Assembly: GCF_056712565.1 (NCBI RefSeq)
Contig: NZ_CM160072.1
DNA: 64,000 nucleotides
Strand: one strand, 5' to 3'
Within the stretch, counting starts at the first letter, position 1, and every line of letters begins with the position of its first letter. Shown here one piece after another: positions 6,001 to 9,000 of this stretch. Made by a program: the position numbers.

Positions 6001-9000
6001 TATTTATCAGAACTGGTGTACGTCCAATACAGGAGGTTGTCGTGCTGGTTCTCAAATGTGCGCTAGCTATTGCGGCTGTAATGGCAATTTATTGTCTTGC
6101 TGTTGTTCTTATGGATCGCCTTTCTGATTGATTTTATATTGGCGAGGTGACGGGAGTTAAGTAGAATTGCTGCGGGTGCTTGAGGCTATCTGCCTCAGGC
6201 ATGAACACCAAAGGCAGATAGAGAAAAGCCCCAGTTAATATTACGCGTCCTGCAAGACGCTTAACATTAATCTGAGGCTCAATCTATGAACGGCAAATCT
6301 AGGTTAGCCTCTTACGTGCCGAAAGGCAAGGAGAAGCAGGCTATGAAGCAGCAAAAGGCGATGTTAATCGCCCTGATCGTCATCTGTTTAACCGTCATAG
6401 TGACGGCACTGGTAACGAGGAAAGACCTCTGCGAGGTACGAATCCGAACCGGCCAGACGGAGGTCGCTGTCTTCACAGTTTACGAACCTGAGGAGTAAGA
6501 GACCCGGCGAGGGAGAAATCCCTCGCCACCTCTGATGTGTCAGGCATCCTCAACGCACCCGCACGTAACCCGCTTCGGCGGGTTTTGTTTTTTCCTGGCA
6601 TTCTGGTTTACAATTCGCACGCCAGCCTGAACAACTGGCACCTGCTGCGCCAGCAGAGACAACCGATGGCGCACGATACCAAATTACACAATTCTGATGA
6701 TTCTGCCGTCTTTGCCAGCAGGCACGGGCGGCGTTCCCGCACTTTCAAATCTGACTGGTTCCAGCATCCCCCATGCACTGAAGAACAGGCCGAGTGGCTA
6801 ATTCAGTGCTACCGCAGACACGGATACGAGATTAAGAAAGCCCTCAGCCTCGATTATCGTCACTGGATAATCTCCGTCAGGCTTCCTTACTCCGAACGAT
6901 CACCGCGTCCGTCCCGCACATTCCAGCAACGCATCTGGAGGTAACGTGCGAGTATTACTTCGACCTGTTCTGGTACCGGAACTCGGGCTGGTGATCGTTA
7001 AGCCGGGCCGTGAATCCATGCCGGTATTCCACAATACCCGGGTACTGGTGGAGCCGGAACCGAAAAGCATGCGTAATCTGCCGTCCGGGGTTGTTCCTGC
7101 CGTTCGCCAGCCGCTAGTGGAAGACAAAACATTGCTGCCGTTTTTCAGTAACGCACGGGTGATTCGTGCTGCTGGTGGTGCTGGTGCATTGTCTGACTGG
7201 CTGTTGCGCCATATTAAATCCTGCCAGTGGCCACACGGCGATTATCATCACAGCGAAACCGTCATTCACCGTTATGGTACCGGCGCAATGGTGTTGTGCT
7301 GGCACTGCGACAACCAGCTGCGTGACCAGACATCCGAATCACTCGAGCAACTTGCTCATCAAAACCTGTCAGCATGGATGATTGACGTCATACTCCATGC
7401 AATGAATGGCTCGCAGGAACGGGAATTATCGCTGGCTGAATTATCCTGGTGGGCGGTCCGCAATCAGGTGGCGGACGCGCTACCGGAAGCGGTATTACGT
7501 CGTTCGCTGGGGTTGCGTGCGGAAAAAATCCGCTCAATGTACCGTGAAAGCGACATCGTACCGGGAGAGCAGACCGCCACCAGCATACTGAAGCAGCGCA
7601 CAAAAAATCTTGCGCCGCTGCCTCACGCCCACCAGCAAAACCCGCCACAGGAAGAGACGGTGGTCAGCATTGCCGTTGATCCTGAGTCTCCGGAATCTTT
7701 CATGAAACGACCTAAACGTCGCCGCTGGGTTAACGAGAAATACACACGCTGGGTGAAGACACAGCCGTGTGCGTGTTGTGGTAAGCCAGCCGACGATCCC
7801 CATCACCTGATTGGTCATGGTCAGGGCGGAATGGGGACAAAATCTCACGATATTTTCACGCTACCGCTGTGTCGGGAGCATCACAACGAGCTTCATGCGG
7901 ATCCTCTGGCGTTCGAAGAAAAGCATGGTTCTCAGGTTGATTTAATTTTTCGTTTTCTTGATCACGCCTTTGCAACTGGCGTGCTTGGGTAAAAGAGGTG
8001 ACTGATGCTCATAGATTTGGTTTTACCTTACCCGCCGACGGTGAACACTTACTGGCGACGCCGTGGCAGCACATATTTTATCTCGGAGGAGGGAAAGCGT
8101 TATCGCCGGGCTGTGGCGCTTATTGTTCGCCAGCAGCGGCTGAAATTAAGCCTGTCCGGAAGGCTGGCGATAAAGGTGATTGCAGAGCCACCGGATAAGC
8201 GTCGTCGCGACCTGGACAATATCCTGAAAGCACCGCTGGATGCGCTGACGCATGCGGGAGTGTTAATGGACGATGAGCAGTTTGATGAAATCAATATCGT
8301 TCGTGGTCAGCCAGTATCTGGTGGACGTATGGGGGTGAAGATTTACCCCATAATGCATGAAGAGCAGGTCAAAAAATGAAACTGGAAGATTTACCGAAAT
8401 ACTACTCCCCAAAATCCCCTGGCCTGACCGATGCATCGGCCTCAACGTCAAAAGATGCGCTGAGTATCACTGATGTGATGGCCGCGCAGGGCATGACACA
8501 GAATCGGGCTGAGATGGGGTTTTCTGCGTTCCTGGGGAAAATGGGCATCAGTATGAATGACAGGGCGCGGGCAACAGAATTACTGGCAGATTATGCACTC
8601 AGTCGGTGCGATCGTGTGGCGGCGTTGAGAAAACTTCCGGCAGAAATAAAACCGGTAGTGATGCGCATTATGGCTTCGTATGCGTTTGAAGATTATGCCC
8701 GTAGCGCGGCGAGCAAAAAACAGTGCCCTTGCTGTCACGGAAAAAAATTTATTGAAAGCGAGGTTTTTACAAACAAGATCCAGTATCCGGATGGTAAGCC
8801 ACCAGTGTGGGCAAAGTGCACAAAAGGCGTGTATCCGTCTTACTGGGAAGAATGGAAAAAAGTCAGGGAGGTGGTAAAAGTTGCCTGTCCGGAGTGTGGC
8901 GGAAAGGGTGAGGTTTCCACCGCCTGTAAGGATTGCCGTGGGCGTGGTGTCGCCATTCATCGTGAAGAGTCGGTAAAACGTGGTATGCCTGTTATCAGAG

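Follow-up and report, generated by a model that had tools for sequence, protein, structure and literature searches.

The presence of a hok-type gene among the early genes of a lambda-like prophage raises the question of whether it is part of a complete, regulated toxin-antitoxin locus, and of what such a locus would do for the prophage that carries it. Within the window (the whole 64,000-nt stretch of DNA analysed here), a hok/sok-type type I locus had been predicted at this point, and we found all the elements described in that prediction, some of them at slightly corrected coordinates, in a complete cassette spanning positions 6139-6594. We consider it very probable that the best explanation, taken whole (i.e. 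with its mechanism and role included), is that of a type I toxin-antitoxin cassette in which hok, mok and sok are all intact, and which belongs to the hokD/hokW subtype. Since RefSeq already gives the gene the name hokD, the family is textbook-grade and a sister copy of ~94% identity has been characterised experimentally, the cassette is a known one and carries little weight as a discovery. We regard it as a clean illustration of the state that the damaged hokD (relF) of K-12 had prior to the replacement of its leader by relBE, and as a candidate accessory for the timing of lysis in a prophage of uropathogenic Escherichia coli.

Genomic context and identity of the cassette

The cassette is a discrete insert in a complete lambda-like E. 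coli prophage, which is integrated in ompW, and lies amid the early-right (nin-type) genes of this prophage. Its predicted placement in the nin region holds, the locus being flanked by the replication genes on one side and by DUF968/RusA/Q on the other, in a stretch (cro to Q) in which all annotated genes of the window lie on the plus strand. This co-orientation of hok with its neighbours extends to related loci: in 69 of 73, the closest downstream open reading frame shares the strand of hok, and 86% of the flanking coding bases are found on the hok strand. At the level of distribution, most E. coli genomes contain the cassette, as do about 100 phage records, and the PGAP annotation of identical genomes names the gene hokD.

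An AT-rich cassette had been said to adjoin the locus, and the GC content indeed amounts to 31-44% over positions of about 3550-5800, as compared to ~55% downstream. This neighbour is a two-gene insert in a part of the prophage that collects accessory genes, and such company would suit a function in abortive infection or exclusion, by which a lytic phage stops host transcription, Sok decays and Hok kills the cell before the phage completes its cycle. A precedent is offered by hok/sok of plasmid R1, which is described in the discussion of PMC8621323 as having cut the plating efficiency of T4 by 42% and its plaque size by about 85%; given that this effect required the high copy number of the plasmid used, and that hok is not enriched near defence systems (Hok preprint, 2026), we consider a defensive role of the window cassette quite unlikely.

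The assignment to the hok/mok/sok family is carried by the leader as well as by the toxin. In Rfam, which had been proposed as a check, RF01794 matches positions 6174-6348 over the full model (1-157) with 113.3 bits (gathering score 59, E=5e-25), which points to a resemblance beyond chance; the match is on the plus (hok-sense) strand and the model represents the leader, not Sok in its own orientation. Two further matches, an isrK-like one at 6507-6588 (27.8 bits, threshold 50) and a sub-threshold minus-strand match to 'sok' (19.9 bits), were discarded as chance or generic hairpin-plus-terminator likeness.

The toxin gene and its K-12 counterpart

The hok gene (hokD-type; 6343-6498, plus strand) encodes a toxin of 51 aa and is preceded by a Shine-Dalgarno sequence (GGAG, 6330-6333, plus strand) that was read directly from the sequence and whose surroundings are nearly invariant. 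Its attribution to the Hok/Gef family was borne out by Pfam (PF01848 HOK_GEF: 78.6 bits with a cut-off of 22, E=2.6e-22, the match covering all 42 profile positions, 1-42), and the reading frame also matches PHROG 251 ('MokW-like host killing', 2.8e-32); with the Hok subfamily of NCBIfam it reaches 45 bits, under the cut-off of 73. The near identity to HokD that had been claimed translates into 50/51 aa shared with the K-12 protein (NC_000913 b1562), a single nucleotide (GTT vs GCT at 6478-6480) accounting for the substitution A46V. Among related loci the coding sequence is nearly invariant, and in the alignment (read by eye) seven variable sites are synonymous and one (A/V46) is nonsynonymous. 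The adjacent codon 47 (Tyr47) reads TAC in TTTACGAA, position 6482 lying within it.

On the grounds of this identity, and of a shared position within a Qin-like gene order, we assign the toxin as the orthologue of K-12 hokD, whose overexpression is toxic (Hok preprint). The cryptic prophage Qin, which harbors hokD (relF) in K-12, shares with the window the order dicB-ydfABC ... hokD - DUF968 (ydfU) - Q, and the two copies have in common the toxin, the hok Shine-Dalgarno sequence, the 3' UTR hairpin, the fbi box and the terminator. On the other hand, homology between K-12 hokD and the window begins only at 6329, as relB-relE stands in K-12 in place of the hok promoter, tac, ucb, mok and sok, and K-12 hokD thus lacks an antitoxin RNA of its own. 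A truncation of the K-12 type is also found in a few prophage contigs (L040, L053, L060 and L077), whereas the window holds the complete form.

With such a damaged counterpart at hand, one may ask whether the window copy is itself an inactive relic, no longer expressed or regulated, in the manner of the chromosomal hok genes of K-12, all five of which are commonly held, reportedly by the account of Pedersen and Gerdes from 1999, to be inactivated. The loss of the whole leader in K-12 hokD and the weak -10 element of Sok would be in line with this; set against them are a regulatory apparatus of which every element is intact, conserved across hundreds of prophages and marked by compensatory stem changes, a hok gene whose variation is near-nil and nearly all synonymous, and the functionality of hokW-sokW (94% identical). 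In view of these observations, we deem decay of the window copy very improbable and retain its interpretation as an intact cassette.

The hok transcript and the mok reading frame

Transcription of hok would start from a promoter at 6139-6167 (plus strand; TTGGCG at 6139-6144, a spacer of 17 nt, TAGAAT at 6162-6167), which was recovered by a consensus scan with 9/12 matches. Its -10 element aligns with the TATAAT of K-12 hokC, and its -35 element lies outside the shared cassette, since homology in most related loci starts at about 6154. The full-length hok (mok-hok) mRNA is predicted to cover 6174-6594 (plus strand, about 420 nt), as delimited by position 1 of RF01794 at 6174, by the terminator and by the pairing of the two ends in the minimum-free-energy fold. 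The terminator was located where it had been expected (stem at 6567-6584, then a T-run); this intrinsic terminator of the hok mRNA (6567-6594, plus strand; 7-bp stem with 5 G-C pairs) also constitutes the 3' boundary of the cassette, as homology between loci stops here.

The upstream in-frame extension from 6286, for which a mok-like nature had been suggested, emerged from the list of open reading frames as a 70-aa frame (6286-6498, plus strand) in frame with hok. Its ATG is kept in 69/69 aligned loci, and its Shine-Dalgarno sequence (GAGG, 6274-6277, plus strand, by direct reading), 8 nt before this ATG, in 68/69. The frame and the peptide are not conserved across the same 69 loci, which have a 70-aa frame in phase with hok, a 19-aa upstream open reading frame (ending in ATGA on the hok start) or an out-of-frame one of 67-68 aa. 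Judged from its sequence, the upstream frame behaves like mok, which in loci of this family has to be translated but whose product is not required. In plasmid R1, mok is out of frame with hok, and the K-12 annotation depicts both arrangements, with mokC in frame with hokC (as in the window) and mokB out of frame.

RNA folding and the predicted switch

The 5' end of the mRNA is formed by the tac element (translational activator; GGGTGCTTGAGG, 6174-6185, plus strand), which is predicted to pair with 6548-6560 in the full-length RNA and with 6226-6232 in the 3'-truncated one. The first of these partners, fbi (fold-back inhibition; CCTCAACGCACCC, 6548-6560, plus strand), is complementary to tac with one bulged C, and together they form a 12-bp helix in the minimum-free-energy as well as in the consensus folds. 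This pairing is kept in 69/69 related loci (99.8% of cells paired), all changes being G-U compatible; the helix is nearly invariant and displays no two-sided covariation within the subtype. The second partner, the ucb or anti-SD box (AAGCCCC, 6226-6232, plus strand), would cover the mok Shine-Dalgarno region (6274-6279) in the full-length RNA and turn to tac in the truncated form. The minimum-free-energy folds thus combine tac/fbi with anti-SD/mok-SD in the full-length RNA, and tac/anti-SD with mok-SD/dcb in the truncated one; these are the two states described for plasmid R1 (PMC9841398), and the refolding predicted between them matches the published R1 switch.

The remainder of the fold is made up of local hairpins. 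In the nascent transcript, a metastable 5' hairpin (6176-6202, plus strand; obtained by folding the first 32 nt) is predicted to sequester tac (nt 3-29: 11 bp, -19.6 kcal/mol, z = -4.8), and a metastable 5' structure is also part of the R1 model (PMC9841398). Concerning the leader hairpins that the original prediction had put around 6190-6235, their presence and conservation stood and their range needed a slight shift, as the stable 5' leader hairpin (6186-6221, plus strand) has its arms at 6186-6194 (CTATCTGCC) and 6213-6221 (GGCAGATAG); one of its pairs is changed from A-U to G-C in 6 loci, i.e. in a compensatory manner. Compensatory A-U, G-U and G-C stem changes were also observed in a stable 3' UTR hairpin (6506-6527, plus strand; local fold of -19.7 kcal/mol), which, by extension of the R1 model (PMC9841398), is likely to be the point where 3' trimming would stop and leave an active truncated mRNA.

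Covariation across 69 distinct loci argues for the fold: 93.7% of cells pair, as compared to 35-44% when the partners are slid, and compensatory changes affect 7 pairs against 1.5 in shuffles, with none of the 500 shuffles (0/500) reaching the observed value. A long-range helix (6309-6315 with 6495-6501) is invariant and, as it never varies, falls beyond covariation testing; its candidacy as ucb/dcb was dropped, since ucb is the anti-SD box at 6226-6232 according to PMC9841398.

The antisense RNA

An antisense RNA on the minus strand had been envisaged over the leader. By alignment to the annotated sokC of K-12, we delineated a putative Sok of about 77 nt (6218-6294, minus strand), its start being placed at 6294 because the annotated sokC starts 9 nt inside mok. 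Its predicted shape comprises a single-stranded 5' tail, a long hairpin and a U-rich tail (-34 kcal/mol, z = -6.6). An antisense promoter was found as well, by homology, at 6301-6329 (minus strand; -35 TTGCCT at 6329-6324, a 17-nt spacer, -10 TAACCT at 6306-6301), in a region that is nearly invariant (0.09 bits per column). A generic promoter scan did not find this Sok promoter, since its -10 element fits the consensus at only 3/6 positions. The sokW gene of prophage Sp5 has the same TAACCT as its -10 element, and the mutation of TAGGTTAG to CCGGCTCG (given for the plus strand; primers YO-421 and YO-422) abolished antitoxin activity (PMC8621323).

Relatives, mode of action and role

The sister cassette hokW-sokW (Stx2 prophage Sp5 of O157:H7 Sakai; Takada et al. 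2021, PMC8621323) shares about 94% identity over 6154-6570, a figure that refers to the window and the cassette of an Stx2 phage, whose sequence is matched by the Sp5 primers and probes. The two cassettes are identical in tac, the hairpins, the mok Shine-Dalgarno sequence, the Sok -35 and -10 elements and fbi, and both toxins measure 51 aa; they differ in the version of the Sok-target loop (CTGAACACATG in hokW-sokW vs AACGGCAAATC in the window), in the last residues of the toxin (FVDYESEK vs FTVYEPEE) and in location, the cassette of Sp5 being near att/int and that of the window in the nin region. The sokW RNA of Sp5 has 71 nt and is complementary to the hokW leader (PMC8621323). In K-12, hokC/mokC/sokC (gef) is about 81% identical across the whole locus, and the two share their 5' end (GGGTGCTTGAGG) and an in-frame mok; the Sok hairpin of the window carries an 18-nt insertion (about 6243-6260) as compared to sokC (77 nt vs 59 nt), and K-12 hokC has an IS186 inserted just downstream.

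More distant in sequence (HokW is 44% identical to R1 Hok; PMC8621323), hok/sok (parB) of plasmid R1 has the same architecture and refolding that we predict for the window (tac/fbi, ucb/mok SD, a truncated active form, and Sok over the mok start), in a plasmid context where its proven and classical function is post-segregational killing. By transfer to the prophage, the cassette could be an addiction module: loss of the prophage would remove the unstable Sok, the stable hok mRNA would persist and the cured cell would be killed. The parts needed for it are present, namely an mRNA for which stability and inertness are predicted and an antisense of the kind that is unstable in R1, and prophages show an enrichment of hok genes of about fourfold (Hok preprint). 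Nevertheless, the chromosomal hokA, hokB and hokC gave no post-segregational killing in the tests cited in that preprint, deletion of hokW-sokW was without effect on growth when uninduced (PMC8621323), and loss of an integrated prophage by excision normally accompanies induction, on account of which we see addiction as an unlikely role.

Most likely, the cassette would work as hokW-sokW does and aid lysis upon induction; the sole experimental result on cassettes of this type favours such help with lysis and phage release over prophage stabilisation or abortive infection, the two roles first put forward. The promoter, with its modest match to the consensus, would give rise to an mRNA of roughly 420 nt from about 6174, the 5' end of which would be held in the metastable hairpin for as long as the RNA is nascent. 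Once the mRNA is finished, tac would pair with fbi and the anti-SD box (6226-6232) would cover the mok ribosome-binding site, rendering the full-length RNA inert. Slow 3' trimming, as modelled on plasmid R1, would then strip the terminator and fbi, whereupon tac would pair with the anti-SD box and the mok Shine-Dalgarno sequence would come to lie in a small hairpin whose loop is the Sok target. As long as Sok (~77 nt, opposite strand) is present, it would bind across the mok start and the duplex would be destroyed by RNase III, by analogy with R1 and sokW; with Sok gone, mok would be translated and hok along with it by coupling, and the 51-aa Hok would enter the inner membrane and kill or permeabilise the cell. 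For the window locus, we infer Sok transcription, 3' trimming, RNase III cleavage and Hok toxicity from these relatives.

In the case of hokW-sokW, it has been shown that Hok is toxic, that Sok neutralises it and that RNase III cleaves the duplex; moreover, sokW vanishes after mitomycin C treatment in a RecA-dependent fashion, HokW appears about 1 h before endolysin, and deletion of the locus halves the amount of released phage (PMC8621323). A comparable role in the window would imply that prophage induction leads to the loss of Sok, and that Hok then speeds up growth arrest and lysis and raises phage release. The likely trigger would be early phage transcription that crosses the cassette in the same sense as hok and opposite to the Sok promoter; in Sp5 the trigger may differ, since the cassette lies there near att/int and not in the nin region.

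A hypervariable Sok-target loop and a neighbouring peptide gene

Two small leads fall outside recent surveys, namely the hypervariable Sok-recognition loop and a gene for a membrane peptide upstream of the cassette; by its own statement, the Hok preprint leaves Sok and mok outside its analysis. Column entropy exposed a hypervariable patch at mok codons 2-5 (6289-6300, plus strand; 0.87 bits per column vs 0.02 to 0.36 in other parts of the locus), which forms the loop of the Sok-target hairpin (6275-6310) and of which the 5' half (6289-6294) is complementary to Sok nt 1-6. Among the 193 loci listed we counted 19 loop versions, the rest of the locus being about 95% identical, and in nearly all versions (each folded separately) the variable bases make up a loop of 5-9 nt on a local hairpin that is itself conserved. 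In the register of the window, the target hairpin pairs in only 72.9% of cells on the alignment, since variable versions use shifted registers. A YUNR U-turn motif in the target loop of R1 is said to speed up Sok binding (a finding reportedly made by Franch et al. in 1999); many versions have this motif in their loop, that of the window (ACGGCAAA) lacks it, and it is no strict criterion of the family.

It is conceivable, albeit doubtful, that the 7-9-nt loop, together with the initial bases of Sok that match it, serves as an 'address' for specificity that is held diverse by selection. The form of this idea in which co-resident copies must differ found no support, given that among 23 same-genome prophage-contig pairs (among the matches listed, some contigs being perhaps duplicates of one prophage) 7 had identical loops, as compared to 2.7 expected by permutation (P(null <= observed) = 0.995). 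In the weaker form that remains, selection may operate in superinfection or recombination, the alternative being a plain lack of constraint, as any mutation at the loop keeps antisense complementarity. Were the address to exist, it would govern whether or not the Sok of a resident prophage silences the hok of an incoming or neighbouring phage, and the diversity of the loop would have a counterpart in plasmids under antisense control, where changes in a loop give rise to new incompatibility groups. As for the second lead, the gene located just upstream of the cassette (6042-6131), which had no match in NCBIfam or PHROGs, is conserved and hitherto unannotated and would encode a membrane peptide of 29 aa.

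Identity and prophage setting of the cassette

The window derives from a B2/UTI89-type E. coli chromosome, 6100-6620 matching UTI89 and many ExPEC genomes at 100% identity. Here ompW is the integration site of a lambda-like prophage that is complete; it comprises an immunity region, replication genes, DUF968, RusA, Q, tRNAs, lysis genes and the genes from terminase through tail fibres, and is followed by a truncated ompW and then by the trp operon. The original prediction had placed a hok/sok-type type I toxin-antitoxin locus in this element, an observation that we confirm and a reading that our results support; we are highly confident that the identity of the locus (a hok/mok/sok cassette) and its mechanism are jointly secure. 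The expected 51-aa Hok/Gef toxin was recovered at 6343-6498 (Pfam HOK_GEF, E=2.6e-22; PHROG 251, 'MokW-like host killing'), is annotated as hokD in RefSeq, and is indeed nearly identical to HokD, as the MG1655 hokD coding sequence differs at one nucleotide (A46V). K-12 hokD has in common with the window the hok SD, the coding sequence, the 3' hairpin, the fold-back inhibition (fbi) box and the terminator, but its homology begins only at window 6329, the upstream side being occupied in K-12 by relB-relE. Since, in addition, the gene order of Qin (dicB, ydfABC ... hokD, DUF968/ydfU, Q) matches that of the window prophage, the locus is present undamaged in the window, and K-12 hokD (relF) is a truncated remnant of it. 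Four IMG/VR loci (L040, L053, L060 and L077) display the K-12-type arrangement (leader replaced, homology to the window from the hok SD only), and the relBE-hokD form is therefore not limited to K-12. Codon 47 of hok is a TAC inside TTTACGAA (6478-6487), in a TACG context resembling reported TadA editing sites; TadA editing that recodes Tyr to Cys has been reported for hok mRNAs (2026 Hok preprint), and the A46V difference (GTT in the window, GCT in K-12) lies directly 5' of the TACG motif.

The hok mRNA and its predicted switch

The hok promoter was identified on the plus strand at 6139-6167 (TTGGCG-17-TAGAAT), and the anticipated terminator is present at 6567-6584; the leader hairpins also exist, slightly displaced from the proposed position (arms at 6186-6194 and 6213-6221, instead of around 6190-6235). 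As the Rfam model RF01794 ('sok antitoxin') spans the hok mRNA leader in the hok-sense strand, from its first base to the hok ATG, its plus-strand match (6174-6348, 113 bits) shows by itself where the locus is, and not how Sok is oriented or how far it extends. For the first 32 nt of the nascent transcript, folding predicts a hairpin of 11 bp in which the 5' end is sequestered (-19.6 kcal/mol, z = -4.8). In the full-length RNA (6174-6593), the 5' element tac (6174-6185) is predicted to pair with fbi (6548-6560), and the anti-SD box (around 6228-6232) with the mok SD (GAGG, 6274-6277); once the RNA is truncated behind its 3' hairpin (6506-6527), tac is predicted to pair with 6226-6232, and the mok SD to enter a small hairpin with 6306-6310. 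These are the same two states as in the hok mRNA of plasmid R1, where tac/fbi with ucb/SD (ucb being the anti-SD box) give way to tac/ucb with SD/dcb (PMC9841398). Across an alignment of the window and 68 distinct prophage relatives, the named helices pair in 93.7% of cells (35-44% with partners slid), and two-sided changes affect 7 pairs, as compared to 1.5 in shuffles (a value of 7 being reached by 0/500). Pairing reaches 99.8% of cells in the tac/fbi helix, which, because it is almost invariant, finds its support in conservation and complementarity and not in covariation.

The mok-like extension proposed from 6286 proved to be a 70-aa in-frame ORF, whose ATG is kept in 69/69 loci. In most of these mok is such a 70-aa in-frame Hok extension (residues 2-5 variable), while 13/69 carry a 19-aa upstream ORF with a stop overlapping the hok start (ATGA) and 3/69 have out-of-frame ORFs (67-68 aa); K-12 likewise has mokC in frame and mokB out of frame. 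A retained ATG with varying frame and peptide fits the rule that it is the translation of mok, and not the Mok protein, that counts (PMC9841398).

Sok and its variable target loop

Sok had been expected on the minus strand over the leader, and its promoter was found there at 6329-6301 (-35 TTGCCT, 6329-6324; 17-nt spacer; -10 TAACCT, 6306-6301). The same TAACCT is the -10 destroyed in the 'promoter-less' sokW of Stx2 prophage Sp5, in which primers turn plus-strand TAGGTTAG into CCGGCTCG and antitoxin activity is abolished (PMC8621323). With ends transferred by alignment from K-12 sokC (annotated 5' end 9 nt inside mokC), Sok would be a 77-nt minus-strand RNA running from 6294 to 6218, differing from sokC by an 18-nt insertion that makes its hairpin longer; in the predicted fold, a long hairpin separates a single-stranded 5' tail from a U-rich tail (-34 kcal/mol, z = -6.6).

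The sole strongly variable part of the cassette (the rest being ~95% identical) is formed by 6289-6300 together with the mok SD-ATG spacer (6279-6300 overall), with an entropy of 0.87 bits/column vs 0.02 in hok and 0.04-0.36 in other parts. Positions 6289-6300 are mok codons 2-5, and the 5' tail of Sok is complementary to 6279-6294. The 193 prophage loci listed show 19 loop versions, and in nearly every one a conserved hairpin is predicted whose 5-9-nt loop consists of the variable bases, with the predicted Sok start inside it; on this modelled structure, the loop would be the place where antisense recognition begins. Besides a need for same-genome copies to differ, relaxed constraint offers an alternative explanation for the variability, since any mutation in the target also changes an antisense RNA encoded in cis and so preserves complementarity; selection on loop specificity, for which the difference from the flanks gives some scope, we consider unlikely.

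Distribution and probable role

Of 5426 complete E. coli genomes, 4292 contain at least 80% of the leader (median three places per genome), and the cassette is present in 102 phage records, under the names MokW, HokD, host killer or gef. A 2026 preprint catalogued 44,248 Hok homologues, enriched in prophages, and by its own statement leaves Sok and mok outside its analysis. The idea that same-genome copies must differ in the loop was not supported, as 7/23 such pairs among the loci listed were identical (2.7 expected), and copies sharing a genome thus differ no more than by chance. Homology between loci (those from IMG/VR being among the matches listed) usually starts at ~6154 and ends at the terminator, with differing flanks; in phage Tritos (L084, 3501-3957) the cassette lies between replication genes and DUF968/Q, a nin-type placement as in the window, while in Stx2 converting phage I (L083, 3501-3909) it adjoins att/int. 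These features mark it as a discrete mobile insert.

From cro to Q, all annotated genes lie on the hok strand, and in 79 related loci (within L003-L082) 86% of the flanking long-ORF coding bases (+/- 4 kb) do so too, as does the nearest downstream ORF in 69/73 loci. Early phage transcription would thus traverse the cassette in the direction of hok and meet the Sok promoter head-on, a collision that may act as the trigger. We count this co-orientation in support of a hokW-type role, in which Hok released at prophage induction would assist lysis; in Sp5, HokW appears ~1 h before endolysin, and deletion of hokW-sokW halved the released phage (PMC8621323). Post-segregational killing and abortive infection by the cassette stand as rivals to this favoured induction role, and an inactive relic is the least likely reading, given the conservation of the cassette.

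Neighbouring genes

Directly upstream, an unannotated hydrophobic 29-aa ORF (MLVLKCALAIAAVMAIYCLAVVLMDRLSD; 6042-6131, plus strand, AGGAGG SD) has its stop 7 nt short of the hok -35. It yielded no family match in NCBIfam or PHROGs and is without annotation in 3/4 phage records; about 20 distinct prophage loci conserve it, with changes that are synonymous, while others have a 34-aa paralogue (MSDDISLAMEGALAVIAVVGVYCLVVFLMDRLGN). The ORF is probably a genuine gene for a small membrane protein. The AT-rich block reported beside the cassette was also recovered (GC 31-44% over ~3550-5800) and holds a plus-strand two-gene insert (3746-4708 and 4724-5725), whose proteins match solely PHROGs 17908 and 16994, both of unknown function, the C-terminus of the second having a weak, sub-threshold GNAT acetyltransferase match; the insert may represent accessory or defence cargo. 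Between hok and the DUF968 gene, a plus-strand 92-aa ORF (6666-6944; PHROG 1212, unknown function) sits where K-12 Qin has rem. Downstream of the Q-like gene, three tRNA genes (10869-11115) precede two copies of the STnc100 sRNA family (11194-11384 and 11662-11871), an arrangement resembling the usual late-region leader of lambdoid phages.
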